Source: Flavobacteriales bacterium
GTDB taxonomy: Bacteria > Bacteroidota > Bacteroidia > Flavobacteriales_F > PHOS-HE28
NCBI GenBank assembly: GCA_047601855.1
Contig: JASGIM010000001.1
Location: forward strand, 2,820 to 66,819
Reading direction: 5' to 3'
DNA: 64,000 bases
Shown: positions 24,226-47,151 of the stretch, one piece after another
How the letters are laid out: each line of letters opens with the position of its first letter
Numbering within the stretch: the stretch's first letter is position 1
Position numbers and translations under genes: made by a program
The notes under the pieces: generated by a model
Seen by the model: the letters and a program-made list of their open reading frames with translations, nothing else
Told to the model about the DNA's origin: nothing
The model's database searches: none

Positions 24226-24290
24226 TGCGGCTACAAAGGTCCGAAGTGTTCGATGAACGATCGCTTTCGCACCTCGCGGAACGGACAGGC

Positions 24291-25368
24291 TTAGCTCCCC
24301 TCCTTCAGCTTCTCCGTGCGGTCCGCGAGCTGGAGCGCGTCGATGATGTCCTGCAGATCGCCATTGAGCACTTCGCCGAGGTTGTGTACGGTGAGCTCGA
24401 TGCGGTGATCGGTGACGCGGCTTTGCGGGAAGTTGTAGGTGCGGATCTTGGCGCTGCGGTCGCCGCTGCTCACCTGGCTCTTGCGGTGCGCCGCCAGGGC
24501 CACTTGCTCCGCATGCACCTTCTCTTCGTAGAGCTTGTTGCGGAGCATCTGCATGGCCTTCATGCGGTTGCCCAACTGGCTGCGCTCGGTCTGGCACATC
24601 ACCACGGTGCCGGTGGGAATGTGCGTGAGGCGCACCTTCGTTTCCACCTTGTTCACGTTCTGTCCTCCGGCGCCGCCGCTGCGGGCGGTCTCCATCTTCA
24701 CGTCGCTCTCCTTCACCTCCACGTCGAACTCGTCCGCCTCGGGCAATACGTTCACCGTGGCGGCGCTGGTGTGGATGCGCCCGCTGGCCTCGGTGGCGGG
24801 CACGCGCTGCACGCGGTGTACACCGGCCTCGTATTTCAATACGCCGTACACTCCCTCCCCCGTCACGTTGAAGACGACCTCCTTGTACCCACCGGCGGTG
24901 CCCTCGCTCACGTCGGCCACCTCCACTTTCCATCCACGGCCTTCACAGTAGCGGGTATACATGCGGAAGAGGTCGCCGGCGAACAGGCTGGCCTCGTCGC
25001 CACCCGTGCCTGCGCGTACTTCCACGGTGCAGTTGCGTTCGTCGTTCGGGTCCTTCGGCACCAGCAGCATGCGGATCTCCTCCTCCATCGCTGCGATGGC
25101 CGGGCGCAGTTCGTCCTGTTCCGCCCGGGCCATCTCCACCAGCTCGGGATCCTTCTCAGAGCGCAGCATGTCCTCCGCGCTCTGCAAATGCTCCGTGGCG
25201 CGCTTGTAGCGCTGGAAAGCTTCGTCGATGGGCCCCAGGTCGCGGTACTCGCGGTTCAGTTCCACAAAGCGCTTCTGGTCCGCGATCACGCTGGGGTCCG
25301 CGAGGCGCTTACTCACCTCGGTGCGGCGGTCGTGGATTCGCGCTCAGTTTCTCCAGCAGCTCGCTCAT
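24291..25368 (-). CDS. prfA: Peptide chain release factor 1. Apparent 1-nt insertion near 25337.
   Basis: [10 protein letters not shown] (ORF 25309-25680 frame), then ...[16 protein letters not shown]...[35 protein letters not shown]... (GGQ motif) in ORF 24291-25316. Junction at GTGGATTCGCG (25331-25341); the uninterrupted reading would be GCGATCCAC. Confidence 0.88.
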
Positions 25369-26534
25369 GGGTAGCGGAATTCGCCGTGCGCGCCGCTCAC
25401 CACCACCTCGGCGCGGCCAGGCAGGGCCTCCACGCGGCCGATGACCTTGGCCGCGATGCCGAAGCCCTCCGCGATGGCGATGATCTCCGCCGCATGGGCC
25501 CTGGGCACATAGAACTCCAGGCGGTGGCCCATGTTGAACACCTTGTACATCTCGCTCCAGCCGGTGCCGCTCATCCGTTGGATGGTGCTGAACAACGGCG
25601 GCGTGGGGAACAGGTCGTCCTTGATCACGCGCACGTTGCTCACGAAATGGAGCACCTTGGTCTGCGCGCCGCCGCTGCAATGCACCATGCCGTGTATCCC
25701 ACCGCGCATGCGCTGGAGCACTTCGCGCACCACGGGCGCATACGTGCGGGTGGGCGAAAGCACGGCCTTCCCCAGGTCTAGCGGCGTGCCGGGCAGCGGA
25801 TCCAGCAGTCCGGCCTGGCCGCTGTAGACCAGCTCATCCGGCGTGCCAGGATCATAGGTCTCGGGGAACTTGCCGGCCACGGCCTTGGCGAACACGTCGT
25901 GCCGGGCGCTGGTGAGGCCGTTGCTGCCCATCCCGGCGTTGTAGCTGTCCTCATAAGTGGCCTGCCCATCACTGGCCAGGGCCACGATCACATCTCCGGC
26001 CTGGATGCGTGCGTTGTCGATCACCTCCTCGCGCTTCAGCCGTGCGACCACAGTGCTGTCCACGATCACGGTGCGCACCAGGTCGCCCACGTCGGCGGTC
26101 TCGCCACCGGTGCTGCGGATGCCGATGCCCAGGCCGCGCATCTTTTCCAGGAACGCTTCCGTGCCCTCGATGATGGCGCTTATGACCTCACCGGGAATGA
26201 GCCGCTTATTGCGGCCGATGGTGCTGCTGAGCAGGATGTTGTCCGTGACGCCCACGCACAGCAGGTCGTCCAGGTTCATCACCACCGCGTCCTGCGCGAT
26301 GCCGTGCCACACGGAAATGTCACCGGTCTCCTTCCAGTAGGCATAGGCCAGCGCGCTCTTCGTGCCCGCGCCATCGGCATGCATCACCAGGCAATGACCG
26401 GGACTGCCGGTGAGGTCATCCGCCACCACCTTGCAGAAAGCCTTCGGAAAAAGGCCTTTGTCCAGCGTAGCGATGGCCTTGTGGACGTCCTCCTTGGCGC
26501 TGGAGACGCCGCGTTGTTCGTAGCGGGAGCTCAT
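25365..26534 (-). CDS. purM: Phosphoribosylformylglycinamidine cyclo-ligase (AIR synthase)
   Basis: 389 aa PurM-like. ...ADGAGTKSALAYAYWKETGD...VHCSGGAQTKVLHF... The stop overlaps the prfA start (ATGA). Confidence 0.9.
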   Translation of the reverse strand: MSSRYEQRGVSSAKEDVHKAIATLDKGLFPKAFCKVVADDLTGSPGHCLVMHADGAGTKSALAYAYWKETGDISVWHGIAQDAVVMNLDDLLCVGVTDNILLSSTIGRNKRLIPGEVISAIIEGTEAFLEKMRGLGIGIRSTGGETADVGDLVRTVIVDSTVVARLKREEVIDNARIQAGDVIVALASDGQATYEDSYNAGMGSNGLTSARHDVFAKAVAGKFPETYDPGTPDELVYSGQAGLLDPLPGTPLDLGKAVLSPTRTYAPVVREVLQRMRGGIHGMVHCSGGAQTKVLHFVSNVRVIKDDLFPTPPLFSTIQRMSGTGWSEMYKVFNMGHRLEFYVPRAHAAEIIAIAEGFGIAAKVIGRVEALPGRAEVVVSGAHGEFRYP

Positions 26535-26595
26535 GGATCGGGGTGCAAAGAAGAAGGCATCCCGTGTGTGGGATGCCTTCTTCCTGCCGCATGCG

Positions 26596-28627
26596 CTAGT
26601 TGTTCTGCGGCGCTGGCGTGTCCTTGGGCACGTAGTCGAAGCTGATCACCTTGAAGTCGGTGCGGCGGTTGCGCTGGTGCGCGGCCTCCTGCTCTTCCTT
26701 GGTCTTCATCTTCTTGATCTCCGCATCCGAGAATCAACGGTTCCGTGGCCCCCTTACCCACCGGCACCATGCGGGCCGGATCGATGCCTTTCGTCACCAG
26801 ATAGTTCACGCAGCTCTGCGCGCGCAACTGGCTCAGTTCCATGTTACCACCCTTGTAGCTACGGGTCTGACGGGAGTCCGTATGCGAGCGCAGCTCGATC
26901 ACGATCGTGGGATTCTCCACCAGCGTGTTGTAGAGCGTCTCCAACGAATCCTTGCCAGCCTGCGTCAGAGCGAACTTATCCACTTCATACAGCACCTGCG
27001 GCAAAGGAATCCCCCCCACAGGAGGAACAGCTGGTTGCAGGAAGTATTCCTTCACGAAGGTGGTGCTTTCAGTGAGACCCACCGTGGTGATCTGGTCGGT
27101 CACCACCAAGTATTTATCGTGGCTAGCGCGGATGCTATAGCTCGTGTTCTCCTTGATATAGCGCTCCTTCGTTGTTCCCGTCCCCTTCTCGACGAAGTTG
27201 AACCCGCCGTTGGCATCGGTGATGGCCGAGAAGCTGGAACCGTCCGTGCCCACCACTTCGATCTTGGTGTCCGGCAGGGGCGCGCCCGTAGCCTTGTCAT
27301 AGGTGGTGCCTTGCAGCGCGAACACGAGGTTCGGCATCATGAAGCGCCAGATGTCGTCCTGGCCTTTGCCGCCGGGGCGGTTGGATGTAAAGTAGCCCTT
27401 CTCCTCGTCGCCGTCGAAGATGATGCCGAAGTCATCGCCGCTGCTGTTGAGCGGGGACTTCAGGTTCTCCACGTGGCCCCAGGTGTTGTCACCGGTCTTT
27501 TCGGCCATGAACATGTCCATGCCGCCCATGCCTTGGTGGCCGTCGCTGGCGAAGTAGAGGTTGCCATTGCTGCGGAGGAAGGGGAACATGTCGTCCTTCG
27601 CCGTGTTCACCTCAGGACCGAGGTTGGAGGCCACGCCCGTGGGCTTGCCGTCCTTGTCCAGGCGGATCATCCACAGGTCCTTGCCGCCCTTGCCACCTTT
27701 CATGTTGCTGCTGAAGATCAGCAGGCCGTCATCCTTGGACAGCGCAGGGTGGCCGATGGTGATCACGTTGGTGTCGTTCTTCTCCTGCTGCGGGCGGAGG
27801 GCCAGCATTTCGGGCTCGCTGAAGTTGTTGCCCACCTTCTTGCTCATCCAGATGTCGCAGCCGAAGGCCTTCTTCTTCTCATGGGGGCAGCGCGTGAAGT
27901 ACATCACCGAGCGCTTGCTGTTGAAGGTGGCGCTGCCCTCGTGGGCGGGGGTGTTGATGCTGGGGGGCAGCTTCACCGGCTCGCTCCACTTGCCGAGCTT
28001 GTCGCGGCTGCTGGTGAAGAGGTCCGTGAAGGAGCCGCCGATGATGCCGTCCTGTTCCACGCCGGTGGAGGCGGTGCGGCTGCTGGCGAACACGAGGTCG
28101 CTGTTCTTCTTGTCCGAGAATGTGGGGCTGAAATCCAGTTCAGGCGTGTTCAGCAGCACTTCGGGGTCCACCACGTAGCGCGAGGGCTGGTCCTTCCAGG
28201 TCTGGGCCAGCTGGCAGGCGGCGAGGCTGGCGTCGGCACGGGCGTCACCGGGGTTCTTCTCCTTGTACTTGTTATAGGCGGCGATGGCCTCGGCATACTT
28301 GCCCTGCTCCTTCAGCGCCTCACCGATGTAGTAGTAGGTGATGGGGTCGGGATACTGGGCCTTGTTGGCCTTCTCGTACCACACCTGGGCGTTGGCCGCG
28401 TCGCCCAGCACGCGGTAGCACTCACCCACCTTGAAGATGAGGGCGGCCTTGTCGCTGGCCTTCTTCTCCTGGGTGTAGGCCTTCTTGTAGAGCTCGATCG
28501 CGTTGAAGTAGAACCCTTTCTTGAACGCCTCTTCAGCCTCGACGGACTGTTTGCCTTGCGCCATCGCAACGGACACGCACAACATGCTGAAGACCGAAAA
28601 GGCCAGGAGCTTCCTCATACTCATCAT
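26596..28627 (-). CDS. OmpA-family outer membrane protein with N-terminal TPR region, WD40-like (TolB/PD40) repeats and C-terminal OmpA peptidoglycan-binding domain. Apparent 1-nt insertion near 26727.
   Basis: Signal peptide MMSMRKLLAFSVFSMLCVSVAMAQ. TPR-like FYFNAIELYKKAYTQEKK.... PD40-like repeats. OmpA C-terminus ...SHTDSRQTRSYKGGNMELSQLRAQSCVNYLVTKGIDPARMVPVGKGATEPLI, then after the frame change ...DAEIKKMKTKEEQEAAHQRNRRTDFKVISFDYVPKDTPAPQNN*. Confidence 0.8.
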
Positions 28628-28786
28628 CGGGTTGCGGAAAGGGGGTGTAGGGGACAGTAGGGCACAACGAGTGCCCGGCGAAAATAAACAAAGTCGCATA
28701 CCGGACACCCCTTCGAGGGGGGAACCGTTGGATCCTACGGGGCTACGGACCAAGGCGCCAGCGATACCGGGCCTTCCGGAAGCGGC

Positions 28787-31985: not shown

Positions 31986-34900
31986 TCAGGCGGTCACCGG
32001 CACGGCGGGGGACTTTTCGGGAACACCGTCCTTGTGCAGGTCCACCACCACCGCGGAGGCGATGAAGATGGAGGAGTACGTACCCACGGCGATACCCACG
32101 AGCATCGCGAACACGAAGCCTTTGATGGAGTCGGCGCCGAAGAGGAAGATCACCAGCAGCACGATCAGCACGGTGACCGACGTGTTGATGGTACGGCCCA
32201 GCGTGGAGTTGATGGCCTTGTTGAAGACCACGGCCCACGGGTCCCGCTTGTGGTCCTGGAGGTACTCCCGGATACGGTCGTACACCACCACCGTATCGTT
32301 GATGGAGTAGCCGATCACCGTAAGGATGGCGGCAATGAAGTGCTCATCGATCTCCAGCGAGAAGGGCATGATCTTGTACAGCAGCGAGTAGAGCGCCACC
32401 ACCACCAAGGCATCATGCGCCAGCGAGAGCAGGGCGCCCAGGCCGAACTGCCAGGTGCGGAACCGCACCGCGATGTAGAGGAAGATGAACAGCAGCGCAG
32501 CTATTACGGCGTACCAGGCATGGGCGCGGATGTCGTCGCTGATCGTGGGGTCCACCTTGCGCGAGGCCGCCACGCGGAACGGGTCGTTCATCGTGCGCAG
32601 GCCTTCCTGGAGCTTGTCCTCCACCAGCTTGTCCGTGGCCAGGTCGGTGCTGTTCACCATGTAGTTGGTGGTCACCTTCACCTGGTTGCTGCCGCCGTAG
32701 CTCACCACGCGCACGCCGCTTTCCACGCCTTCCAAGGTGAAGGCCGGCTCCAGGGCCGTGCGCACGTGCTCCACCTCCACCGGCTGGTCGAACTTCACCA
32801 CGTACTCACGGCCGCCGGAGAAGTCCACCCCGTAGTTGAAGCCCTGGGTGAACATGCTCACGAAGCCGGCGATGATGAGGACGCCGGAGAAGAGGTAGAA
32901 GTACTTCCGCTTGGCCATGAACTGGTAGTTCGCGTGGGCGAAGATGTCCTTGTTCCAGCTGTGCCAGAAGGTCATGGACTTGCCGTTCTCCAAGCGCTTG
33001 GAGATGATGAGGCGGCTGATGAAGATGGCGGTGAAGAGCGAGGTGAGGATACCCAGCGCCAGCGTGACCCCGAAGCTCTTGATGGGGCCTGTGCCGAAGA
33101 AGATCAGGATCACGGCCACTACGAAGTGCGTCACGTTCGCATCGATAATGGCGGACATGGCGTGCTTGTAGCCCAGGTCCACGGCGCTCTTGATGGCCTT
33201 GCCGTGGCGCAGTTCCTCCCGGATCCGTTCGTTAATCAGCACGTTGGCATCCACGGCCATACCCACCGTGAGCACGATACCCGCGATGCCGGGCAGGGTG
33301 AGCGAGGCCTGGAGCGAGGCCAGGGTGCCCATCAGCACGAACACGTTGGCGAGCAGGGCCACGTTGGCCACCCAGCCCGAGCCGTTGTAATAGATGACCA
33401 TGAAGAGCATCACCATCAGCATGGCCACCGCGAAGGAGATGAGGCCGCGCTGCACATTCTCGCCACCGAGTGAAGGGCCCACCACCGTTTCATCGATGAT
33501 GCGCGCAGGCGCCGGCAGCGCACCGGCCTTGAGCACGTTGGCCAGGTCGGTCGCTTCTTCCAGTTGGTTGTTGCGGTCGCCGCTGCCCATGCTGATGCTG
33601 CTGCGGCCGCCGGGGATCTCGCCCATGACGTTGGGCGAGGACACCACGCAGCCGTCCAGCACGATGGCGATCTGCTTGCCCACGTTCTCGCCGGTCATCA
33701 GCTTCCAGGTCTGGCCGCCTTCGGCGTTCATCTGCATGGTCACCTCGGCATCGCCCTTCATGTCGAAGTCCTGGCGGGCATCCACGATCACGCTGCCGTC
33801 CAGTTTCGGCTTGCCGCCACGGGGCACGCGCAGGGCGTGGAGGGTGAGGAAATCACGGCCGTTGCCGTCGGCGGCGAACATCTTCGTGGGCTTGCTGCTC
33901 CAGGCCAGTTTCAGGCCCTGGCTCGCGTTCGGGCTGCTGGGGGGGGCCAGGCGGAGCAGGCGGGCCACCTCGGCGGTGTCGCTCACGGCGCAATACCCCA
34001 CCACGTCACCGCGGCCCAAACGGCCGTCACCGGTCATGTTGGGCACCAACCGGCCCAGCAGCGGGTTCTTGGCCAGGCGTTCGGCCTCGGTCATCTCAGG
34101 CTTGGTGGAATCCGCAGCGGTGGTGTCCGCCAAGGCGGCATCGGCCAGGCTGTCGGCCTTGGACTTGCCCGCGGTCTCGGCGGAAGGGTCGGTGGCCAAC
34201 ACCCTCAGGGCCATGCGACGGTTCTTCGCACGTCCTTCTGCAGTAGCGTTGCTGGCCACGGGGTGCTGCGAACCATAGCCTTCCGCTTCCAGCCGGCCGG
34301 TCGCCACACCCTTGCCCACCAAGGCGGCCACTACGGCCTCGGCACGCTGCTGGGAGAGGCGTTGATTGGCCTGCTCATTGCCCGTGCTGTCCGTGTAACC
34401 ACCGATCTTCAGGCGGACCGCTGGATAGGCCTTCATCACTTCGGCCAGGTTGGTCAGCTGTTCCATTGAGCGAGCTGCGTCCAGCTTGGCGCTGCCGCTC
34501 TCGAACGTCACCCGGTCGAAGTCGATCCAATTCTCTTTGTCCACCGCCTTGCCACTGGCCAGGAGATCCACCAATCGCTTCTCCACGCCGGTGGTATTAC
34601 CGCTGATCTTGGTGCCCGTAGGCAAGGTGTGGTCATACGTAGCGCCTCCCTTGTCGGCACTGTCGGCCTTCGCCAGCTCGGGGTGGAGCATGGCGCTGAG
34701 CTTGGTGTTGGAAGCGGCGATCGCCGGGAACACGTCCTGGTTGTCGAAGGTCTCCCAGAACTCCAGGTTGGCGGTGCTTTGCAGCACTTTGCGCACCCGC
34801 TCCTTGTCCTTCACGCCGGGCAGCTCGATCTGGATGCGGCCGCTGATGGACTGCTTCTGGATGCTCGGCTGGGCCACGCCGAACTTGTCGATACGGGTGC

Positions 34901-35513
34901 GGAGGATGCGTTCGGTGTTGTTCAGCGCGATACCGGCCTGGTTGCGCAGCGCGGCGATCACCTGGCTGTTCGTGCTCTCCCGCGGGAACATGGCCGCATT
35001 GTCCTGCGAACTGAAGATGGCGGCGAGGCTGCCGTTCGGGGCGGCCTTGCGGAACTCTTCATCGAAAAGGGTGATGAAATCGCTGTTGCTGCTGGATTGG
35101 CGATGGCGGGCGGCGTCCAGCGCAGCGCGGAAGGCGGGGTCTTGGCTGTTGCCGCTGAGGTTGTCCACCAGTTCGGGGATGCTCACCTCCAGGGTCACGG
35201 CCATGCCGCCCTTCAGGTCAAGGCCGAGGTTGATCTCGCGCTCCTTGCACTCCTTGTACGTGTAACCGAAGAGCGGGTACACCTTGTCGTCATCGTGGTC
35301 GCGCAGGTATTTGTTCTCGAACACCAGCTTGATCGAATCGCGATCGATGTGGGCGGGGTTGCCCAGCGTTCCGATCAGCGAGTCGGCCTGGGCCACGGCG
35401 ATGCCGTCAGCCTTCCGTTCCAGGCCGCCGGTGAAGAAGGAAAAGGACAGCTGCCACAAACATGCGATCGCCAGGAGGATGGTGAACACCCATAGCGCGC
35501 CTCGATTCTGCAT
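31986..35513 (-). CDS. secDF: Protein translocase subunit SecDF (fused), ~1175 aa, with an OmpA-like domain embedded in the SecD periplasmic region
   Basis: MQNRGALWVFTILLAIACLWQLSFSFF... Conserved SecD motifs ANLEFWETF and ...IAIVLDGCVVSSPNVMGEIPGGRSSISMG...LANVLKAGALPAPARIIDETVVGPSLG. SecF half ...GVDFSGGREYVVKF.... Between the SecD motifs lies FDRVTFESGSAKLD...GGYTDSTGNEQANQRLSQQRAEAVVAALVGKGV...GYGSQHPVASNATAEGRAKNRRMALRV (nt ~34197-34526). Confidence 0.88.
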   Translation of the reverse strand: MQNRGALWVFTILLAIACLWQLSFSFFTGGLERKADGIAVAQADSLIGTLGNPAHIDRDSIKLVFENKYLRDHDDDKVYPLFGYTYKECKEREINLGLDLKGGMAVTLEVSIPELVDNLSGNSQDPAFRAALDAARHRQSSSNSDFITLFDEEFRKAAPNGSLAAIFSSQDNAAMFPRESTNSQVIAALRNQAGIALNNTERILRTRIDKFGVAQPSIQKQSISGRIQIELPGVKDKERVRKVLQSTANLEFWETFDNQDVFPAIAASNTKLSAMLHPELAKADSADKGGATYDHTLPTGTKISGNTTGVEKRLVDLLASGKAVDKENWIDFDRVTFESGSAKLDAARSMEQLTNLAEVMKAYPAVRLKIGGYTDSTGNEQANQRLSQQRAEAVVAALVGKGVATGRLEAEGYGSQHPVASNATAEGRAKNRRMALRVLATDPSAETAGKSKADSLADAALADTTAADSTKPEMTEAERLAKNPLLGRLVPNMTGDGRLGRGDVVGYCAVSDTAEVARLLRLAPPSSPNASQGLKLAWSSKPTKMFAADGNGRDFLTLHALRVPRGGKPKLDGSVIVDARQDFDMKGDAEVTMQMNAEGGQTWKLMTGENVGKQIAIVLDGCVVSSPNVMGEIPGGRSSISMGSGDRNNQLEEATDLANVLKAGALPAPARIIDETVVGPSLGGENVQRGLISFAVAMLMVMLFMVIYYNGSGWVANVALLANVFVLMGTLASLQASLTLPGIAGIVLTVGMAVDANVLINERIREELRHGKAIKSAVDLGYKHAMSAIIDANVTHFVVAVILIFFGTGPIKSFGVTLALGILTSLFTAIFISRLIISKRLENGKSMTFWHSWNKDIFAHANYQFMAKRKYFYLFSGVLIIAGFVSMFTQGFNYGVDFSGGREYVVKFDQPVEVEHVRTALEPAFTLEGVESGVRVVSYGGSNQVKVTTNYMVNSTDLATDKLVEDKLQEGLRTMNDPFRVAASRKVDPTISDDIRAHAWYAVIAALLFIFLYIAVRFRTWQFGLGALLSLAHDALVVVALYSLLYKIMPFSLEIDEHFIAAILTVIGYSINDTVVVYDRIREYLQDHKRDPWAVVFNKAINSTLGRTINTSVTVLIVLLVIFLFGADSIKGFVFAMLVGIAVGTYSSIFIASAVVVDLHKDGVPEKSPAVPVTA

Positions 35514-35720
35514 GACGGAAGGACGGTTGGTTTTGGAAAGGTCCGCTTCGGCGGTGGGCCTTGGACGGAGAATGGGGCGGCAAATATAGAAGGATGCCCC
35601 AGCCGTGGACGGGGGGCCTGGACAGCCCACCATGGATGGTGGACAACGCGGCCCCGCGACCGCCCTCCCCGGCCGCGCCAGTGCTCTAGCTTCGCAGCGA
35701 TCCGCTCCATCCCACCCCGC

Positions 35721-38000
35721 ATGCGCCATCGCCTGTCCACCCTCTTCTCCGTTCTTCCCCTGCTCCTCAGCGCGCAATTCGACCTGCATCCCGACCAAAG
35801 CATCCCGGTAACGCGCAACGGCCAGCTGCTCGGCATGCCCTGGGCCGGGGGCCTCAACTACCCGCAGGTGTCGGACATCGATCTGGATGCCGACGGCGAC
35901 AAGGACCTGTTCCTGTTCGACCGCTCCGGCAACCAGGTGATCACCCTGATCAACGATGGCGTGGAGGGGCAGATCAGCTACCACCTCTCGCACGACTACG
36001 ACCACATCTACCCCTTCGCCCAATTGCAGGAGTGGGCGCTTCTGCGCGATTACAACTGCGACGGCAAGGAGGACCTGTTCACCTATACCAATGGTGGCGT
36101 TGCGGTGTACAAGAACACGAGCGTGGGCGGCCACCTCTCCTTCGAACAGGTGGATACGCTGGTGCGGACCAATTATGTGCCGACGGTGACGAACCTATAC
36201 ATCACCCAGGTGGACATCCCGGGCATCGAGGACATCGACGGCGACGACGACCTGGACATCCTCACCTTCAGCATCTTCGGCAACTTCGTAGAGTTCCACC
36301 GCAACATGAGCATGGAACGGTACGGCACCTGCGACAGCCTGGCCTATGAAGTACACAACCGCTGCTGGGGCTTCTTCTCGGAAAGCCTCACCAGCAATGC
36401 CCTGCGCCTGAACAATCCCTGCCAATACAACGTGCCAGCCCCCGAATTTCCGGGCAGGATCACGGAATGGGTCCAGCAACTGAAGTCCAGCAATCCGGCC
36501 GTGGCCGCCAACGCTTTGAAGGAGCTGCGGGCCGCGCACGTGGGCAGCACCCTGCTCCCCTTGGACCTGGACGGCGACCGCGACATGGACCTGATCCTCG
36601 GCGACGTGCTCTACAACAACCTCGTCGCATTGACCAACGGCGGCACCATCGCACAAGCCAACATGACCGCGCAGGACACGCTGTTCCCGCAATATGATGA
36701 CCCCGTGAACCTGGACCTTTTCCCGGCGGCCTTCTTCAAGGACATCAATAACGACGGCAAACGCGACCTGATCGTGACGCCGAACTACCCCACGCAATCG
36801 CAGAACTTCCAGAGCGTGTGGTACTACAAGAACGTGGGCACCGATAGCACGCCGGTGTTCAACTTCCAGCAGGAGGACGTGTTCCAGGACCGCATGCTGG
36901 ACTTCGGGGAGGGCGCCTATCCGGTGGCCTTCGACTATGACCGCGACGGGCTGATGGACCTGGTGGTGGCCGACTACGGCTACTACCAGCAGGGGGGCTC
37001 ATACCCGAGCAAGATGGCCCTGCTGCACAACACGGGCACGGCCTCTGAACCCGCCTTCACGCTGGTGACGGACCACTATGCCGACCTGGACACCACGAAC
37101 CTCAAGGCCATCTATCCGGCCTTCGGGGACATGGACGGCGACGGCGACATGGACCTCTACCTCGGAGAGTACGAAGGGCTCCTGCACTTCTACCGCAACG
37201 TGGCCGTTTCCGGCCCGCCGCAATTCTCGCCGCAGAGCAACCTGGTAAAGGACGATAACGGCACCGTGATCGACGTGGGGCAGTTCTCCACGCCGCAGTT
37301 CTTCGACCTGGACAACGATGGCCTCCAGGACCTGCTGATCGGCGAACGCAACGGCAACCTGAGCTACTACCGCAACACCGGCACCACCAGCAGCCCGGTG
37401 TGGCATCTGGAGAACGACAGCGTGGGCGGGGTGAACACCGCGGAGTGGTGGAACGTCACCGGGTTCAGCGTGCCGTGCATGTTCCGCGGTCCGGACGGCC
37501 AGGCCCGCCTGCTGCTGGGCAGCGAGAGCGGCTGGATCCATGCGTACGACAGCATCGACAACAACCTCAACGGCACCTGGCGGATGTTGGACAGCACTTG
37601 GCAGGACATCCACGAAGGGGCCCGCACGGGCCTTGCCGTGCATGACTTCGACGGCAACGGCAGCCTGGACGTGGTGATCGGCAACTACCGCGGCGGCATC
37701 AGTTTCTGGCGGAACGACCATGTAACGGGCATCGAGCAGGCGGCGGCCCGCGTGGAACATGCCTTCCAAGTGATGCCGAACCCGGCGAACACGGCAGCGG
37801 ACATCCTCCTGGCCCTGGACGCACGGACCGGTATGCGCCTGGACGTGCTGAACGAGCTTGGACAGACGGTCCGTTCCCTGCCCGTGCGCGGCAAGCGCCT
37901 GCACATGGACACCGAGGGCCTGCGCAACGGCGTGTACATGCTGCGCCTGAGCGACGGCCCCGCACGCTGGACGGAACGGCTGGTGGTGCTGCACGAGTGA
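35721..38000 (+). CDS. FG-GAP/VCBS-repeat beta-propeller protein with T9SS type-A C-terminal sorting domain
   Basis: Signal peptide MRHRLSTLFSVLPLLLSAQ. Repeated D.D.DGD.DL(I/V) FG-GAP-like motifs. C-terminus ...FQVMPNPANTAADILLALDARTGMRLDVLNELGQTVRSLPV...GVYMLRLSDGPARWTERLVVLHE. Confidence 0.8.
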   Translation: MRHRLSTLFSVLPLLLSAQFDLHPDQSIPVTRNGQLLGMPWAGGLNYPQVSDIDLDADGDKDLFLFDRSGNQVITLINDGVEGQISYHLSHDYDHIYPFAQLQEWALLRDYNCDGKEDLFTYTNGGVAVYKNTSVGGHLSFEQVDTLVRTNYVPTVTNLYITQVDIPGIEDIDGDDDLDILTFSIFGNFVEFHRNMSMERYGTCDSLAYEVHNRCWGFFSESLTSNALRLNNPCQYNVPAPEFPGRITEWVQQLKSSNPAVAANALKELRAAHVGSTLLPLDLDGDRDMDLILGDVLYNNLVALTNGGTIAQANMTAQDTLFPQYDDPVNLDLFPAAFFKDINNDGKRDLIVTPNYPTQSQNFQSVWYYKNVGTDSTPVFNFQQEDVFQDRMLDFGEGAYPVAFDYDRDGLMDLVVADYGYYQQGGSYPSKMALLHNTGTASEPAFTLVTDHYADLDTTNLKAIYPAFGDMDGDGDMDLYLGEYEGLLHFYRNVAVSGPPQFSPQSNLVKDDNGTVIDVGQFSTPQFFDLDNDGLQDLLIGERNGNLSYYRNTGTTSSPVWHLENDSVGGVNTAEWWNVTGFSVPCMFRGPDGQARLLLGSESGWIHAYDSIDNNLNGTWRMLDSTWQDIHEGARTGLAVHDFDGNGSLDVVIGNYRGGISFWRNDHVTGIEQAAARVEHAFQVMPNPANTAADILLALDARTGMRLDVLNELGQTVRSLPVRGKRLHMDTEGLRNGVYMLRLSDGPARWTERLVVLHE

Positions 38001-39068: not shown

Positions 39069-40082
<1,014 letters not shown>

Positions 40083-40186
40083 TTAGGCCCATGGGGGATC
40101 CCCAGGGTCCACGATCCGGGGCGATTTGCGAACAGGGGATGACGGAACGATCAAAAAATGCTTAATTTCCCCACGTTCAGCCCCCC

Positions 40187-40831
40187 ATGACCGCCCTCGA
40201 CCTGGCAACCCTTGAGGCCAACCTCCGTCTAGACCCCACATGGAAGGGCATGGAGGCAGTGGAGCAGGCGTTCGCGAAGCTCATCGATGGATGCATCGCT
40301 GGGGAACGCAAGTGCCAGCAGCGCATCTACGAGCTCTTCTATGGGAAGATGATGGCGGTATGCCTGCGCTACACCAAGAACCACGACCAGGCGAAGGACA
40401 TCCTACAGGATGGCTTCATCAAGGTGTTCCACGGCATGGAGCGGTTCAACCGGGAAGGCAGCTTCGAGGGCTGGATCCGGCGGATCATGGTGAACACGGC
40501 GATCGACCACTTCCGGCGGGCCAAGAACGCCTACCTGTTGCTGGGCGAGGAGCGCAGCATCGAGGAGTTCGGGGACCCGGACGAGGAGGACGACCTGGCG
40601 GACGACGAGATGGAGGACCAGCTGGACCTGAAGCCGGCGGACGTGATCAACGCCATGCAGAAGTTGACGCCGGCCTACCGGACGGTCTTCAACCTCTACG
40701 TCTTCGAGGAATTGACGCACAAGGAGATCGCCGACATGCTGGGCATCAACATCGGCACCTCCAAGAGCAACCTGGCCAAAGCGAAGCACAACTTGAAGAA
40801 GTTGCTGAAGAAAGAACATAAGCTCCCTTAG
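40187..40831 (+). CDS. ECF-type RNA polymerase sigma-70 family factor
   Basis: Region 2: RIYELFYGKMMAVCLRYTKNHDQAKDILQDGFIKVFHGMERFNREGSFEGWIRRIMVNTAIDHFRR. Region 4: LTPAYRTVFNLYVFEELTHKEIADMLGINIGTSKSNLAKAKHNLKKLL. The real start may be the internal Met at 40250. Confidence 0.85.
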   Translation: MTALDLATLEANLRLDPTWKGMEAVEQAFAKLIDGCIAGERKCQQRIYELFYGKMMAVCLRYTKNHDQAKDILQDGFIKVFHGMERFNREGSFEGWIRRIMVNTAIDHFRRAKNAYLLLGEERSIEEFGDPDEEDDLADDEMEDQLDLKPADVINAMQKLTPAYRTVFNLYVFEELTHKEIADMLGINIGTSKSNLAKAKHNLKKLLKKEHKLP

Positions 40832-40835
40832 AGAG

Positions 40836-42179
40836 ATGGCAGAACGGATGAATGAGCTCGACGCCTTCGAGCAGCGCCTGCGGGGCTCCCTCGAACAGTT
40901 CGAGGTACCCTACAACTCAGCGGACTGGGCGCAGTTGGAGCGCGCCTTGGACAATGAGCGCCGGGGATGGCTATTCAAGGGGACCGGCATGGCCACTCTG
41001 TTGGTCGCAGGGGCCTTGGTGGCAGGCGGTGCCGCCTACCTCTGGAGCGGCAAAGGGGATGCGGCCATCGCCGGCAATGGTGGCGCAACCAGCGACCAGC
41101 ATATCCCGGCCAGCACGCCCGGGGCCACCGGCAACGTAGAGAACGCGAACACCGGGTCCGCCCATGCGAACGCCGCCGGACAGGCAGGAACGCAGGTCTC
41201 CTTCGACCATTCGGGCAACACGCCGGAAGGCCCCTCCTCCAACGGTGCCGGTATCCACGCGGCGGGCATCGTGAGCACCGCACACACGCCCGACCATCTC
41301 CACAGCACATCCAACGGGGAGCAAGCGGCCACGACCAAGGCCCCTGCTACCAGCAATGCCGCGGCGCCCGCTACGGCCAAGGCCGCGGAGACGCCCAAGG
41401 CCGAACCGACCTTCCACGCCAGTGTCAGCCAGGGCTGTCCCGGCGCCCCGGTACACTTCAAGGTGGAGCACATGCCCGAGGACGGCATCTACCTCTGGAA
41501 CTTCGGCGATGGTAGCTTCAGCAACAAGCCGAACCCCGAGCATACCTTCAGCAAGCCCGGTACCTACCAGGTGATGCTGTCCATGTCCGCCAGCGGCGTG
41601 GGCACCATCCACAACAAGCCGAGCAGCGACGTGATCGTGATCCACGAACCGCCGCAGGCCGCCTTCAACATCCTGAAGCAGGAATACGACGGCCATATCC
41701 CCTCGGTACACTTCGAGAACCGCGCCATGGGCGGCAAGACCTACGCCTGGTCCTTCGGCGACGGCGCCACCAGCAGCATTGCCCATCCGGATCACATCTA
41801 CAAGAAGAAGGGCGTCTACCAAGTGGAACTGACCGTGACGAACGAGATCGGCTGCGTGGACAAGACCCTGCGCGAGGTGCTCATCGAGAAGGATTACAAC
41901 CTGGATGCGCCCACGGCCTTCTCGCCGAACGGGGACAATATCGACGAGACCTTCATCCCCGAGGCATTGCGCCAACTGGGCGTGAAGTTCCACCTGGCCG
42001 TATACGACACCAACGGCGGGCTGCTGTACGAGACCAACGATGCCACCAAGCCTTGGACCGGCCGCCTGAACAACCGCGGCGACGTATTGCCGGCAGGCGA
42101 GTACGTATGGGTGGTGGACGTGAGCGAGAACCTGCACCTGGACGAGACCTACACCGGCAAGGTGAAGCTAGTGCGCTGA
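40836..42179 (+). CDS. Putative membrane-anchored anti-sigma factor with extracytoplasmic PKD domains and a T9SS type-B C-terminal sorting domain
   Basis: Starts 4 nt after the sigma gene. Short cytoplasmic N-terminus, one TM helix (GMATLLVAGALVAGGAAYLW), a low-complexity Ala/Thr/Pro linker, two PKD-like modules (WNFGDGSFSNKPNPEHTFSKPGTYQVMLSMS; WSFGDGATSSIAHPDHIYKKKGVYQVELTV), and C-terminus LDAPTAFSPNGDNIDETFIP...AVYDTNGGLLYETNDATKPWTGRLNNRGDVLPAGEYVWVV...GKVKLVR. Confidence 0.7.
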   Translation: MAERMNELDAFEQRLRGSLEQFEVPYNSADWAQLERALDNERRGWLFKGTGMATLLVAGALVAGGAAYLWSGKGDAAIAGNGGATSDQHIPASTPGATGNVENANTGSAHANAAGQAGTQVSFDHSGNTPEGPSSNGAGIHAAGIVSTAHTPDHLHSTSNGEQAATTKAPATSNAAAPATAKAAETPKAEPTFHASVSQGCPGAPVHFKVEHMPEDGIYLWNFGDGSFSNKPNPEHTFSKPGTYQVMLSMSASGVGTIHNKPSSDVIVIHEPPQAAFNILKQEYDGHIPSVHFENRAMGGKTYAWSFGDGATSSIAHPDHIYKKKGVYQVELTVTNEIGCVDKTLREVLIEKDYNLDAPTAFSPNGDNIDETFIPEALRQLGVKFHLAVYDTNGGLLYETNDATKPWTGRLNNRGDVLPAGEYVWVVDVSENLHLDETYTGKVKLVR

Positions 42180-42201
42180 ACACGCATTCCTGATGGGATA
42201 A

Positions 42202-42226
42202 CAAGGCCCGGTAATGCCGGGCCTTG
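42202..42226 (+). terminator. Rho-independent terminator-like hairpin after the anti-sigma gene
   Basis: CAAGGCCCGG-taatg-CCGGGCCTTG (10-bp perfect stem) followed by TCTATTCC. Confidence 0.5.
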
Positions 42227-42546
42227 TCTATTCCATCATCCTCAGCAATTCGCCACCAATACCAATAGCCCCATGTCCAGCGAGGCTCGGACATCTCAAT
42301 GTCATGTCATGTGAACTGGAATTGTGACCGGGTTGAAAAGCTCCAGGCACCCTTACGGGCTATCGGACCGTCTTGGTAACAAGGGTCTCATCACGGATGA
42401 TGGGCCGGATCATAATTCGCTACCTTGCACAGATTAGTGCACATGACACCGGATATCCTGCCTGCCCTGATTTGTCCGCTTCAGTCCCAACGGAATAGGC
42501 GTGAAGGCTACTTACCCCTAGGATCCTGACACATGCCCCTACCACG

Positions 42547-45500
42547 ATGAAGCATCCGTTCCTACCGGGCCGCTTGAGCATTGCAATGGCCTTGGCCTGC
42601 GCGCTGGTAGGGATCTCATCATCTGCCCAGATCGTTCTGAACCAGACCCAGGCACCCACCACCTTGGTGCAGAATGTGCTGATCGGCACGGGCATATTTC
42701 CGAGCAACGTCACCTTCAATGGTGCACCAGGTAACACTGTGGCAAATGTTGGCATAGGTCCCAGTGAGATCGGCCGGTTCAATGGCGCCAATACCTGTCT
42801 TGGCCTGGTCAGTGGTGTATTCCTCTGCCCGGGTGTTGCTCAAGTGCATCTTCCAGGTCCCAATGATCGCCTGAACCGCTTCAGTGGAGGAATGGGATTC
42901 GGCCCTGCAGGTATGCCCACGCCTGACCTCGACCTGAGCCACCTGACGAAGTGGGAGAACTGGCGGGTGAGCGGAGGGAACAACATTTATAATAAGGCCA
43001 ACCTCGAGTTCGATTTCGTGCCGCTCAAGGACATGGTCAGTTTCCGGTACGTCTTCAGCTCGGAGGAGTACGAACGCTGGGCCTGCAGTCAGTATAACGA
43101 CGTGTTCGGCTGGTTCATCAGCGGTCCGGGCATCCCCACCAACATCAACGGCCCGTTCACCAACAACGCCATGAACATCGCCTTCATCCCGGGTTCCCTG
43201 AAGCCAGTGGCGATCAATACGGTGAACAGCGGAAGGACGGACGCCAGCAATGCGAACGGCCCTGATTTCACCGATCTTTTGGGTCCGTGCTTCGCTGCCG
43301 ACTCGAACTGGCAAGCCAATGCCCGCTACTACCGCTACAACGGAGGGCTGTGGCCATTTCCACAGCCGCCGGACGGGGTGGCTCAGTTGGACGCGCCCTA
43401 CAATACGGCCCCCTATTACATCGAACACAATGGCATGACCGTGGTGCTCACGGCAAGCGCCGCAGTGCAGTGCGGAGAGACCTACCACATGAAGATGGGC
43501 GTAGCGAACGTCGGTGACAGTAATTTCCCCTCCGCGGTCTTTCTGGAGAAGGAGAGCTTCAAGAGCACGAACCGGTTCTCCATGGATGTGATGCCGGGCC
43601 CCACCGTGGAAGCGCGGGGCACCGACACGGTCTTCATCGAAAGCAACTGCGACAGCGTATACCTGCGCTTCCACCGCTGGGGCGGCTTCTACCTGGACGA
43701 GGACCTGGAGATCGCCACCTCGGGGACCTCCACCGCCGGGGTGGACTACCTGCCCATCCCCACCAAGGTCCACTTCAACCAACTGGACAGCATGGTGGTG
43801 CTGCCACTGGCCATTCCCGTGGACAGCGATGGCGTGGAGAGCCTGGTGGTGGACATCGTGACCTGTGCCGGGTCCAGACACGTGTATATGATCGACCAGC
43901 GGCCACCCTTGGAGGTGATCCTGGAGGACCAAGCCCTGACCTGTCCGGGCAGGATCGACCCTGGCCCCGCAGGTCTCCGGCGGCTCCAACGACCCTGCAG
44001 GCCTGATCTACCGCTGGAGCACCGGGGAGACCACCCCCAGCATCAACCCGCTCGTCCTACAGACCACCCAGTTCTGGGTCACCGTCACCGACAGCTGCTG
44101 GACACTCCCAGTGACCGACAGCGCCTGGGTGACCGTACCCCTCTATGACCCCATGGTCCTGACCCTGACCCCGGACACGGCCATCCCCTGCCTGAGCTCT
44201 GCGGAACTTCAAGTGCAGGCCACCCTCGGGGCAGGCGGCTACACCTATGCCTGGGCCTTGAACGGCGCTATCCAAGGCACGGACAGCACCTTGACCGTGC
44301 CTTCAGCGGTCCCTTCGGTATACTACGTGGCAGCCGTCACTGACCGCTGCGGGATCGTGGCCAAGGATTCGGTGCTGGTCTCCCAGGCCCCGCCGCCTCC
44401 ACTGGTGGTGACCACCACTCCCGATACGGCCATCGCCTGCCTGGACAACGCGGACCTCACGGCCACCGTGACCGGAGGTGGAGGGATCATCCAGTACAAC
44501 TGGGCCAACAGCAGTGGTGTGGTGGGCGATACCCCCACGATCAACGTGCCCGCCGCCGTGCGTGAGGTCTACACCGTGACGGTGAGCGACCAATGCGGCC
44601 AGTCCGAGCAGGCCCAGGTGGTGGTCACCACCGGACCCACGCCTCCCCTGGTGCTCACCGTCGAGGGCGATACGGCCATCTGTGCCGGCATGCCCATCGT
44701 ATTGCAGGTGCTCTCGGTCAGCGGTGGAGGAGGCGCCTACACCTATGCCTGGAGCCCCGGCGGTACCGGCCCTTCCCATGAGCCATCCTTGGGAGTGAGC
44801 GTGCAGGACGACACCCCCTTCACCGTGACGGTGACCGACGAATGCGGCAACCGGGCCGACACCACTGTGATGGCCGTGGTGATGGACCATGATCCCCTCT
44901 CCCTGGAATGGTCCAACGACACCACCGTGTGCCCGGGTGAGCGCGTGCCCCTGTGGGTGACCCCCACCGGCGGGGCCGGCGGCTACGTGGTGCAATGGCC
45001 CGGCATCGGCAGTGGCCCCGAGGTGGAGTGGACCGCCGGGCATCAGGACATCCAGGCCCAGGTGAACGTGACCGACCTGTGCGGCACCACCGCCTCGGGA
45101 GCGGTGAACGTACTGGTGTATCCGGCCGGGGCCTCCATCCATGCCACCCCGATCACCGAGGTGCAATGGCAGTTCGCCGCCACCACCGTCCCGGCCACCG
45201 GGGTGGACCTCTCCTGGGACCTGGGGGATGGCACCACCGATACCGCCCCCACGGTGGTCCACCAGTACACCGACTACCTGGGCCACTGGGTGGTCCTCCT
45301 GGTGGTGACCCCGGAGGGCTGCGTGCAGGTGGACAGCGTGTACACCCCGCCTCCCTCGGGCACGCTGTACTTCCCCAACTCCTTCACCCCCGATGGCGAT
45401 GGGGTCAACGACACCTTCGGGGGGGAGGGCACCCTGATCACCGGGTACGAACTGCTGATCTTCGACCGCTGGGGCCGGATCACCTTCGAGGCCCACGACA

Positions 45501-45634
45501 TGGCCCGCCGATGGAACGGACGCTCCTCCGACGGGGAGGAGGTCCCACAGGGTGTTTACCAGTACAAGTTCCTGGCCAAGACCTCCGATGGCCGCTTCCT
45601 ACAAGGCTTCGGACATGTGACACTCCTGCGGTAA
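42547..45634 (+). CDS. Large T9SS adhesin-like protein (~1028 aa): signal peptide, choice-of-anchor-L N-terminal domain, repeated Ig/PKD-like modules, type-B C-terminal sorting domain. Apparent 1-nt insertion near 43958.
   Basis: MKHPFLPGRLSIAMALACALVGISSSAQIVLNQTQAPTTLVQNVLIGTGIFPSNVTFNGAPGNT... (choice-of-anchor L). The frame changes at CAGGATCGACCCTGG (43950-43964); removing one base gives ...CPGRITLAPQVSGGSNDPAGLIYRWSTGETTPSINP. C-terminus ...YFPNSFTPDGDGVNDTF...LLIFDRWGRITFEAHDMARRWNGRSSDGEEVPQGVYQYKF...GHVTLLR. Confidence 0.8.
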
Positions 45635-45663: not shown

Positions 45664-47151
45664 ATGCTTCTTCGACCCCTGGCTCTGATCGGCCTATTCC
45701 ATTGCGCGTTCACACTGTTGGCGCAACCTACCGCGAGCAGCACACGGGTGCATTGGAGCCCGCCCTTCACAACGAAGGAGAACGGCGAATTCCAGATGGT
45801 GATGGAGTAGCGGGAAGGCGATTCCTATCTCTATTGCATCCGGGATGGTAAACAACTCATCGCCAAGCTGGACGACGCGATGCAACTGGTCTATGAGCGG
45901 GAAATGGACGAGGGCATGCAAGATGATCAGCGGTCGCTGGTCCGGATCATTCCCTTGGCCGACCGGTTCGTGGTATTCACCAGCAAGGAGGACAAGGCGA
46001 AAGAGCGCACGGACCTCTTCGCGCATGCCTATGCAAGGAGCGACTACTCCCCCTTGGGTGCAAGCCGCCTGGTGGCTTCGCTCGCGGATGAACGGCACAG
46101 GTCATACGCGAGTTTCGCGGTAGGCTTGCTAGCGGATAACAAGGTCATTGCCATCCGACTGGCCGGGCCTTACAACAAATCCATCCCCGCGTCCATCAGC
46201 TTCAAGTTCCTCGACCTGGAGCTGAACGAAATACTTGAGCCGACCTCTGCGGCAACGGCCAAGGTCGAACGAACAATCCCTCAGGGCATCTCCGTAGATG
46301 AGAAGTTCAACTGGAACGATAGCTCATCCACGTATATCGGGCACACGGCCCCTGCCGAGTATAAAGGGCACAAGGTCTCTCCTCCGCAACAAGCATTCGT
46401 CCTGCTGGCCTATCCGCAAGGATCAGCCGAGGGAACAGCACAACGGATAGAACATCCCGGCACTTATTTCCTGGACATGACCTGTGCCCAAGGAATGAAC
46501 AGCCATGTGCTCTGCACAGGCCTTTATGCCGACAAGCCCGAATGGACAGCCACGGGAGCGTTCTTTCTGGAGGTGGACCCCGGCACGGGAGCGATCGTCC
46601 GGGCCAGTTTCAAGCCGATGACCTGGGGAGAAGGCGACGAGGATGCGCGGAACCACCTGCGCGTGGACAGGATGATGCAACGCGCAGACCACAGCTGGAT
46701 GGTGATCGGTGAGCAGAGTGAGCGCAACACCACATGCACGGACCAGATCTACAGCAATGGTGACCGCGTCTGCAATACACAATACATGGTCGGGAACAGC
46801 TTCGTCTTCCATGTGGAACCGGGTGGAGAGGTCGGCTGGCTTACCGAAGTGCCCAAGCGCCAACGCGTATCGAACACGGATGGCGTATATGCCGGCTGTG
46901 CTTTCCACCAAGAGGGCGATCGCCTGATACTCCTATACAACGACGACCCAGCGAACTTGGATAGCCGGATGGGAAAGAAGCCCAAGAACTTCACCGCTGG
47001 CAATGATGCGGTGATCGTGATGGCCACGGTAGAGCCGGACGGTTCCATGCACCGGGAACAGCTACAGGGCATGAACAGGCCTGGGCTGCTACTGAAACCG
47101 GCCGGCGCCGTGGACCGAGCGGACGGCCGTTGGGCCATCGGTGGAGGGTAA
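45664..47151 (+). CDS. Hypothetical secreted protein; an in-frame TAG (45808-45810) separates a signal-peptide exon-like N-terminus from the 423-aa body (alternative start 45880)
   Basis: 45664 MLLRPLALIGLFHCAFTLLAQPTASS...MVME-TAG-REGDSYLYCIRDGKQLIAKLDDAMQLVYE... runs in the same frame throughout. The body has no recognisable domain. Confidence 0.5.

Follow-up and report, generated by a model that had tools for sequence, protein, structure and literature searches.

A predicted ECF sigma/anti-sigma operon with a type IX sorting domain on the putative anti-sigma factor, next to an adhesin-like gene in a Flavobacteriales bacterium

Gene content of the locus

A 64,000-nucleotide stretch of DNA from the metagenome-assembled genome (MAG) of an uncultured Flavobacteriales bacterium (contig JASGIM010000001.1 of assembly GCA_047601855.1; hereafter the window, whose first letter is position 1) was analysed around three consecutive genes. 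These encode an extracytoplasmic function (ECF) sigma factor, a predicted single-pass membrane protein referred to as gene 2, and a large adhesin-like protein with a type IX secretion system (T9SS) sorting domain (Table 1). The gene order is mdh (39069-40040, minus strand), the sigma gene, gene 2, a hairpin, a 367-nt spacer, the adhesin-like gene, a 423-aa open reading frame (ORF) and gyrB. The G+C content of the window is about 63%. As the other genes across the window are housekeeping genes (rpoB/C, rplJ, nusG, tuf, type III glnA, secDF and murB), the locus is not a mobile island. An mdh gene was located upstream in 83 of 89 related loci, where the sigma/gene 2 block again lay within a syntenic housekeeping region.

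Table 1 Features of the sigma/gene 2/adhesin locus (window coordinates)
Feature	Coordinates	Strand	Basis and remarks
ECF (group 4) sigma-70 factor	40187..40831	+	Pfam and NCBIfam matches; probable start 40250
Candidate sigma-operon promoter	40204..40230	+	-35 GGCAACC 40204-40210, 15-nt spacer, -10 CGTCT 40226-40230
Gene 2 ORF, 447 aa	40836..42179	+	PKD domains, CHU_C, one transmembrane helix
Gene 2 cytoplasmic N-terminal module (predicted), residues 1-49	40836..40982	+	Conserved motif; candidate sigma-binding domain
Gene 2 transmembrane helix (predicted), residues ~50-71	40983..41048	+	Hydropathy, AlphaFold2; signal-anchor, N-terminus inside
Gene 2 disordered linker, residues ~72-191	41049..41408	+	Composition, pLDDT; candidate periplasm-spanning tether
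Gene 2, two PKD (Ig-like) domains	41409..41885	+	PKD_4 96.4 bits, two stretches
Gene 2 T9SS type-B sorting domain (CHU_C), then stop codon	41904..42179	+	PF13585, TIGR04131
GC-rich hairpin, 11-bp stem, 5-nt loop	42201..42227	+	Likely terminator or attenuator of the sigma/anti-sigma operon
Candidate adhesin promoter	42346..42373	+	-35 GGCACCC 42346-42352, 16-nt spacer, -10 CGTCT 42369-42373
Adhesin-like T9SS cargo, frameshifted	42547..45634	+	Signal peptide, choice-of-anchor-L head, Ig/PKD/SprB-like repeats, type-B C-terminal domain

The sigma ORF, annotated as a 214-aa protein (MFT3883889.1) whose exact sequence was found in NCBI, matched Sigma70_r2 (61 bits), r4_2 (53.5 bits) and TIGR02937 (102 bits). 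Regions 2 and 4 were present, regions 1.1 and 3 were lacking, and the length was about 190 aa, which identifies the product as a group 4 (ECF) factor, in agreement with a preliminary description made from the letters of the locus. Its relatives in the PDB were SigW (the closest, 1.7e-16), SigH and SigE. The true start codon is probably the ATG at 40250, giving a 193-aa product, and the annotated start at 40187 would be 63 nt too far upstream, because the promoter element described below falls inside the annotated 5' end and is followed 20 nt later by an in-frame ATG. Orthologous sigma factors were called at 193-194 aa in related loci L003 and L008, and the 193-aa form was 84% identical to the L003 sigma.

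Gene 2 starts 4 nt past the sigma stop codon and is identical to MFT3883890.1, named 'PKD domain-containing protein' by NCBI; its relatives are annotated everywhere merely under this name. The protein contained one hydrophobic segment (about residues 51-70, Kyte-Doolittle maximum 1.72), preceded by 50 residues that end in RRGWLFK, with four K/R among the last 15. An AlphaFold2 model built on 22 homologues predicted helices at residues 10-20 and 28-40, a transmembrane (TM) helix at 50-71, a stretch at 72-187 with a predicted local distance difference test (pLDDT) score of about 30, and three confident beta-sandwich domains corresponding to the two PKD domains and the C-terminal domain (CTD). 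The A/G/T/S-rich, low-complexity linker (about residues 71-195) was not alignable between orthologues. Nevertheless, its length was confined to a median of 116 aa (interquartile range 108-124; 160 family members), and conserved length with drifting sequence is the look expected of a fixed-reach spacer, as which the linker may serve. The CTD scored 46.5 bits against PF13585 (CHU_C; cut-off 27) and 36.5 bits against TIGR04131 (cut-off 35), was highly conserved in the family, and exceeded both cut-offs in distant relatives as well. The layout given in the preliminary description (a segment of about 50 aa and one TM helix, then a low-complexity linker, two PKD modules and a type-B sorting domain, starting 4 nt behind the sigma gene) was thereby recovered, with every named domain above its family cut-off. 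Foldseek with the whole model returned generic Ig/PKD arrays only.

Several familiar features were absent from gene 2. Pfam and NCBIfam scans gave no match to FecR or any other anti-sigma family, as had been claimed before, and residues 1-75 had no match of any kind, even at E = 1. The N-terminus contained no zinc-type HxxxCxxC, Cys or His motif, and gene 2 matched none of the models for the ZAS/RsrA-type, FecR, RskA or DUF4179 classes. Hydropathy and alignment revealed no cleavable Sec signal peptide, the hydrophobic segment beginning only at residue 51, after a conserved domain; among homologues, the hydrophobicity of this segment was kept while its sequence drifted, and there was no conserved AxA site. 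Gene 2 has no outer-membrane barrel, and a scan with a barrel hidden Markov model (HMM) gave no match in the 64-kb window.

The downstream gene encodes a protein with a typical signal peptide (MKHPFLPGRLSIAMALACALVGISSSAQ), an N-terminal choice_anch_L domain (NF038133, 173.7 bits against a cut-off of 27) and a T9SS type-B CTD (TIGR04131, 41.8 against 35; CHU_C, 57.8 against 27). It had been described as an adhesin of about 1,030 aa. The choice-of-anchor-L head and the type-B CTD stood, whereas the single reading frame did not: the length of the span, 3,088 nt, is not divisible by three, and the span contains two ORFs, 42547-44148 and 44111-45634. Frame 1 was sensible until ...LEDQALTCPG (~43950) and then junk up to the stop at 44148. 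Frame 2 was open from 43940 and continued with GSTLAPQVSGGSNDPAGLIYRWSTGETT (GSTLAPQVSGG..., a typical Ig-repeat start), and adhesins of other loci aligned in frame 2 back to 43940 by tblastn. The meeting of the two frames implies a +1 frameshift caused by one extra base near 43951, in CCGGGC-A-GGATCG, and repair would yield about 1,028 aa. The frameshift is either a sequencing error or the mark of a pseudogene, which look the same in the assembled sequence. Neither half of the adhesin was present in the protein collection, in which both the sigma factor and gene 2 were found.

Further interrupted or overlapping reading frames were seen. In a long-read MAG, the gene 2 orthologue of locus L042 (7992-9346) was split into two ORFs of 165 and 286 aa, so the window adhesin is not the only frameshifted gene in these MAG assemblies. 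A second PKD/type-B CTD region was located in the window at 12736-16405 (minus strand), in the overlapping ORFs 12736-15027 and 14894-16405, the former with a CHU_C match at residues 77-115. This arrangement points to one more frameshift or to a pair of adhesin genes that are fused or lie side by side.

The N-terminal motif and its genomic partners

Relatives of gene 2 were found in 165 species-level genomes, many of them from activated sludge and lakes. The first ~45 residues formed the most conserved part of the family outside the ectodomain and were nearly invariant in more than 100 full-length homologues (48-69% identity). They contain the motif FEQRLxxSLEQFEVPYNSxDWAQxERAL, predicted to form a helix, an EVPYN turn and a second helix. 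Residues F11, E12, L19, E23-V24-P25-Y26-N27-S28 and D30-W31 were invariant or nearly so in 22 sequences with 49-69% identity. The motif had no match in Pfam, NCBIfam or the PDB. A profile search with a 43-aa motif alignment against an index of 5.8 billion proteins returned 17 candidates and one match, the word index being unsuited to so short a query.

An exhaustive phmmer/HMMER search with the first 75 residues of gene 2 yielded 93 cluster representatives. The motif occurred in them in one to seven tandem copies, spanning up to ~290 aa directly ahead of a TM helix, and it immediately preceded the TM helix in every full-length protein checked. Two C-terminal classes were observed among full-length representatives: 27 ended in an OMP_b-brl_2 beta-barrel (2-7 repeats), and 25 carried PKD and CHU_C domains (1-4 repeats). 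The linker of the barrel class had a similar length, with a median of 132 aa as a rough estimate. Since the repeat segment before the TM helix reaches ~290 aa, the N-terminus is by prediction cytoplasmic and not the n-region of a signal peptide, which contradicts a reading of the TM segment as a cleaved signal peptide.

The genetic context analysis showed an ECF sigma gene directly upstream of gene 2 in all 86 orthologous loci with enough upstream sequence. The spacing of the two genes, -35 to +25 nt throughout these loci, fits translational coupling. Furthermore, an ECF sigma gene immediately preceded each of the six non-orthologous motif carriers that were looked up, although their other neighbours (recQ, a hydrolase and others) were unrelated, and the window sigma was 42-45% identical over its full length to sigma factors paired with barrel-type motif proteins. 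Taken together, N-terminal conservation, the tandem motif, the two C-terminal classes, the sigma linkage and the identity of the sigma factors make a sigma-binding role of the N-terminus the only economical reading of these sequences. Gene 2 is thus very likely an anti-sigma factor with a predicted N-in, single-pass topology, as first proposed from its layout.

Promoter-like elements and downstream genes

An alignment of the sequences upstream of 81 related sigma genes gave the candidate sigma promoter. The element GGCAACC-N15-CGTC(T/A) was present in 46 of 46 loci outside a group termed subgroup B, and in 42 of these 46 an in-frame ATG followed exactly 20 nt past the GGCAACC-N15-CGTCT element. 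Subgroup B had GGCATCC-N15-CGTC (GGCATCC(TTTT)-N-GCGTCT) about 60 nt upstream. Distant relatives had GGCAACC-N15-CGTTT, and one barrel-linked sigma gene showed a near match.

A search for relaxed promoter matches on both strands of 2.4 Mb gave 102 hits, of which 91 were at the sigma gene and three between gene 2 and the adhesin. All three (the window, L024 and L071) read GGCACCC-N16-CGTCT. Scanned on both strands with a two-block position weight matrix (PWM), the 64-kb window yielded no more than two strong sites: the sigma gene's own (29.7 bits) and, at 42343-42376, a second one of 17.5 bits. In the 400-nt stretch that follows gene 2, 19 of 73 loci scored 8 bits or more, compared with 1.6% for random segments and 0% for the opposite strand (scores versus controls, Mann-Whitney p ~6e-17). 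These sites read AGGCA(A/C)CC-N16-(C/G)(A/G)TC(A/T) and mostly lay 60-100 nt past the stop codon, just beyond the hairpin.

The hairpin was confirmed as a perfect stem, with a minimum free energy of -37 kcal/mol for the 70-nt region and no U-tract. Among 77 related loci, 47 had a perfect hairpin of 7 bp or more no further than 90 nt from the stop codon of gene 2, compared with 20 of 770 control segments (2.6%). A scan with sigma-70 promoter and terminator consensus sequences found no promoters, and it missed the hairpin because the latter has no T-run. The hairpin probably terminates or attenuates transcription of the sigma/anti-sigma operon; the preliminary description had called it a terminator.

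The predicted layout accordingly reads promoter, sigma factor, anti-sigma factor, hairpin, weaker related promoter and adhesin. The earlier suggestion that the sigma factor drives the adhesin gene gains support in silico at the level of motifs, because the window and about a quarter of the loci carry a site resembling the sigma promoter in the stretch that separates hairpin and adhesin.

Two other candidates were set aside. Co-transcription of gene 2 and the adhesin had been suggested by short gaps to 'longest-ORF' adhesin starts and was rejected, as hairpins lie inside the apparent overlaps. The conserved element CCACGATC-N10-11-TTGCCAACAG (40109-40133) was rejected as the sigma promoter, being restricted to the window subclade and absent from any other position in the loci, in contrast to the GGCAACC element found in every locus outside subgroup B. 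Located on the plus strand of the mdh-sigma intergenic region, at -72 to -87 relative to the annotated start of the sigma gene, it reads CCACGATC-N9-11-TTGC(C/G)AACAG in this subclade and might be a control site of mdh or a second one of the sigma operon.

The co-occurrence of the three genes was examined in the related loci. Of 67 loci with sufficient sequence, 51 had a large secreted protein with a type-B CTD that started no more than 1 kb downstream of gene 2; with the limit at 6 kb, the number was 59. The heads of these adhesins varied by locus, with choice-of-anchor-L in the window and NIDO or P_proprotein elsewhere; only the Ig repeats and the CTD were alike, at ~30% identity. A phmmer search of the fetched related loci for a head like that of the window adhesin found the window's own copy only. 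Two distant relatives of gene 2, with two and four repeats, were followed not by an adhesin but by a 128-aa gene (L008, 7620-8006; L091, 5981-6367), which is SiaC-like in L091. In L091, this gene precedes the gene of a probably secreted M4 peptidase that has PKD and CUB domains, behind which lies a gene with a type-A (Por_Secre_tail) sorting domain. The constant unit is the sigma factor with gene 2, its target being usually, though not always, an adjacent T9SS cargo gene.

The window also holds T9SS-related genes. A 740-aa protein with TPR, PD40/WD40-like, CarboxypepD_reg and OmpA domains (26531-28753, minus strand) had the PorE family T9SS protein as its best NCBIfam match (500 bits, E = 9e-150; below the 600-bit cut-off). 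Several cargo genes were found, some of type A and some of type B. The PorE-like gene together with these cargo genes indicates that the genome encodes a T9SS. One type-A candidate was a 759-aa FG-GAP/VCBS-repeat protein (35721-38000, plus strand) whose Por_Secre_tail domain scored ~26 bits, just under the cut-off; it is kept at the same position in L001, L003 and L008.

Interpretation, alternatives and neighbouring genes

The closest known system is the Dma family, which was defined in Bacteroides by Pardue et al. (PNAS 2024; PMC10927553) and is restricted to Bacteroidota. Its published plan comprises an N-terminal segment, a TM helix, a long disordered periplasmic tether and, at the C-terminus, an outer-membrane barrel of eight strands (PMC10927553, PMC13088901). 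Dma is encoded after an ECF21 sigma gene, and residues 1-40 of Dma1 suffice to pull down the sigma factor Das1 (PMC10927553). For the window sigma factor, its identity of 42-45% to sigma factors paired with barrel-type motif proteins is the one, indirect, pointer to the ECF21 subgroup. Gene 2 resembles Dma in the order of sigma and partner, the short N-terminal segment, the one TM helix, the long disordered tether, the restriction to Bacteroidota and a C-terminus that would be destined for the outer membrane. Moreover, its motif is common to proteins of the Dma plan (repeats, TM helix, linker, OMP_b-brl_2) that likewise follow ECF sigma genes. Gene 2 differs in having two PKD domains and a T9SS type-B domain instead of a barrel, so that its delivery would require the T9SS and not BAM, and the known Dma regulon (vesiculation, NigD1) is unrelated to adhesins. 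The tethered architecture itself is already published (PMC10927553); new here is that the barrel of the Dma plan is replaced by a secretion signal. No paper on an anti-sigma factor bearing a T9SS sorting domain turned up in the literature search.

We favour, at a probability of roughly 0.55, a two-gene ECF sigma/anti-sigma operon with a separately promoted adhesin gene, in which gene 2 is a Dma-like anti-sigma factor whose outer end is T9SS cargo. The domain order, the link of the motif to ECF sigma genes, its sharing with barrel-type proteins, the tether length and the two promoter-like sites come from sequence and comparison, and sigma binding, T9SS export and release are what these features lead us to infer. 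The cytoplasmic helix-turn-helix module would hold the sigma factor at the inner membrane, with one TM helix as anchor and the disordered tether of ~116 residues crossing the periplasm. The far end (PKD-PKD-CTD) would be presented to, or carried through, the T9SS, and a PorP/SprF-type partner would then keep it at the outer membrane in the manner of other type-B cargo; such cargo is described as staying bound to PorP/SprF-type outer-membrane proteins (PMC9143113). By analogy with Dma, the CTD may bring the tether's distal end to the outer membrane, where its disturbance (loss, cleavage or pulling) would free the sigma factor. The freed sigma factor would transcribe its own operon from GGCAACC-N15-CGTCT and also the adjacent T9SS-secreted adhesin gene from GGCACCC-N16-CGTCT. 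A bolder version, which we hold to be less likely than not, makes the anti-sigma factor a T9SS substrate while it is still tethered to the inner membrane, the sigma factor being released when the powered T9SS engages or pulls the type-B CTD, or fails to do so.

A number of observations weigh against this proposal. Sigma binding, topology and secretion in the gene 2 family are deduced from sequences and models, and the homology of the motif to the sigma-binding segment of Dma1 is indirect, Dma1 being likened by its published plan and not by aligned sequence. The TIGR04131 score of gene 2 barely exceeds the cut-off, and no PorP/SprF-like gene was found in the 64-kb window. T9SS cargo normally carries a cleaved Sec signal peptide, whereas gene 2 would have to pass or occupy the SprA translocon while anchored in the inner membrane, a step for which the proposal offers no explanation. 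Adjacency of sigma factor, gene 2 and adhesin is by itself weak evidence for function, because the block sits in a syntenic housekeeping region. On the transcriptional side, the adhesin site differs from the sigma gene's own by one -35 mismatch and a spacer of 16 instead of 15 nt, it lies 173 nt ahead of the ATG, and the second promoter reaches at least 8 bits in only about a quarter of the loci. Finally, the window adhesin is frameshifted, and some relatives have no downstream adhesin (L053, L092).

Three models are left for the far end of gene 2: a chain spanning the full envelope, a CTD kept in the periplasm, and a linker cut before export. The periplasmic model, which we consider unlikely, takes gene 2 as an ordinary single-pass anti-sigma factor whose PKD-PKD-CHU_C region is a sensor that never engages the T9SS, with CHU_C re-used as a beta-sandwich binding module. 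Most ECF groups do use single-pass anti-sigma factors with diverse periplasmic domains (PMC7826278), and the borderline TIGR04131 score, the lack of a signal peptide and the lack of a PorP-like neighbour in the window are consistent with it. However, few parts of the protein are as well conserved as the CTD, which clears both models also in distant relatives, a tether of conserved length (~116 aa) would be superfluous for a periplasmic sensor, and an outer-membrane barrel forms the end of the sister class that shares the N-terminal motif, which argues for a C-terminus meant for the outer membrane. Cleavage in the linker would make gene 2 a pro-protein: PKD-PKD-CTD would be exported as T9SS cargo, the stub degraded and one sigma factor freed per export, without the full-length chain ever spanning both membranes. 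We judge this quite improbable. It would remove the topological problem at the translocon, a disordered linker is an easy protease target, and Dma1 was seen as full-length protein and C-terminal fragments, of which only the fragments reach vesicles (PMC10927553); yet the linker carries no conserved cleavage motif, and a mere cleavage site leaves its conserved length unexplained.

There is very little to be said for a reading in which gene 2 is an ordinary secreted surface protein with PKD domains whose signal-anchor happens to be unusually long, and in which the place between sigma factor and adhesin is inherited synteny of no regulatory meaning. The NCBI name and the conserved housekeeping neighbourhood (secDF, mdh, gyrB) would suit such a protein. 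Against it, the genuine type-B cargo proteins from the same search (P0240-P0248) had classic signal peptides, unlike gene 2. Furthermore, the linkage of motif and sigma gene persists outside the synteny (recQ, hydrolase and other neighbours), relatives have up to seven motif copies before the TM helix, and the gene pair is spaced for translational coupling in all 86 loci.

Partial parallels to the proposed tethered anti-sigma factor exist in other systems. In the PorA-PorXY-SigP pathway of Porphyromonas gingivalis (PMC7712824, PMC12152298), a T9SS CTD protein likewise reports from the surface to an ECF sigma factor controlling T9SS-related genes. PorA, however, is a separate, fully secreted type-A-like CTD protein that works through the two-component system PorY/PorX and not as an anti-sigma factor, and it has no inner-membrane tether. 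The type-B cargo systems SprB/SprF (Flavobacterium johnsoniae) and PG1035/PG1034 (P. gingivalis) combine a CHU_C/TIGR04131 CTD with Ig/PKD repeats as gene 2 does (PMC9143113, PMC12618676). The window adhesin is a typical member of this cargo. Typical type-B cargo has a cleaved Sec signal peptide and often an adjacent PorP/SprF gene, whereas gene 2 has a conserved 50-aa domain, predicted to be cytoplasmic, and a TM anchor, with no PorP/SprF neighbour in the window. In FecA-FecR-FecI, which PMC10927553 also discusses, and in RsgI/SigI of Clostridium thermocellum, an ECF-type sigma factor is under the control of an anti-sigma factor in the membrane, to which information comes from beyond the cytoplasmic membrane; the ectodomains of RsgI proteins bind carbohydrates, and the genes under their control serve surface or extracellular machinery. 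The window sigma factor is likewise paired with a predicted anti-sigma factor that faces outward from the membrane. In contrast, gene 2 has no FecR, RsgI or zinc-binding anti-sigma domain, and it would combine the receptor with the anti-sigma factor in one polypeptide whose outer end is the substrate of a secretion system.

If the bolder version holds, the secretion machine would through its own activity set the transcription of T9SS adhesin cargo, by a one-polypeptide feedback from secretion to transcription across the whole envelope. A T9SS-tailed sister class with the same N-terminus would show that the tethered anti-sigma design is modular and tie it to a second outer-membrane delivery route, and it would pose the question for T9SS biology of whether an inner-membrane-anchored chain can be a substrate. 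It would also give Flavobacteriales a way of matching adhesin expression to secretion or surface status. The motif, for which Pfam and NCBIfam hold no model, would allow a new domain family to be defined.

Some neighbouring genes had features of their own. The 423-aa ORF between the adhesin and gyrB (45880-47151, plus strand) had no Pfam or NCBIfam match, and phmmer across the other loci found only itself; at the equivalent position, L003 encodes a 457-aa Por_Secre_tail protein. Two overlapping ORFs on the plus strand at 23437-25781 (23437-24294 and 24225-25781), without family matches, may be an interrupted gene. The minus-strand ORF at 31986-36134 encodes a SecDF fusion protein with an inserted OmpA-family domain (~residues 543-639 of the ORF), an unusual decoration of SecDF, and the same combination of SecDF and OmpA was called in the related locus L003 (1,162 aa).

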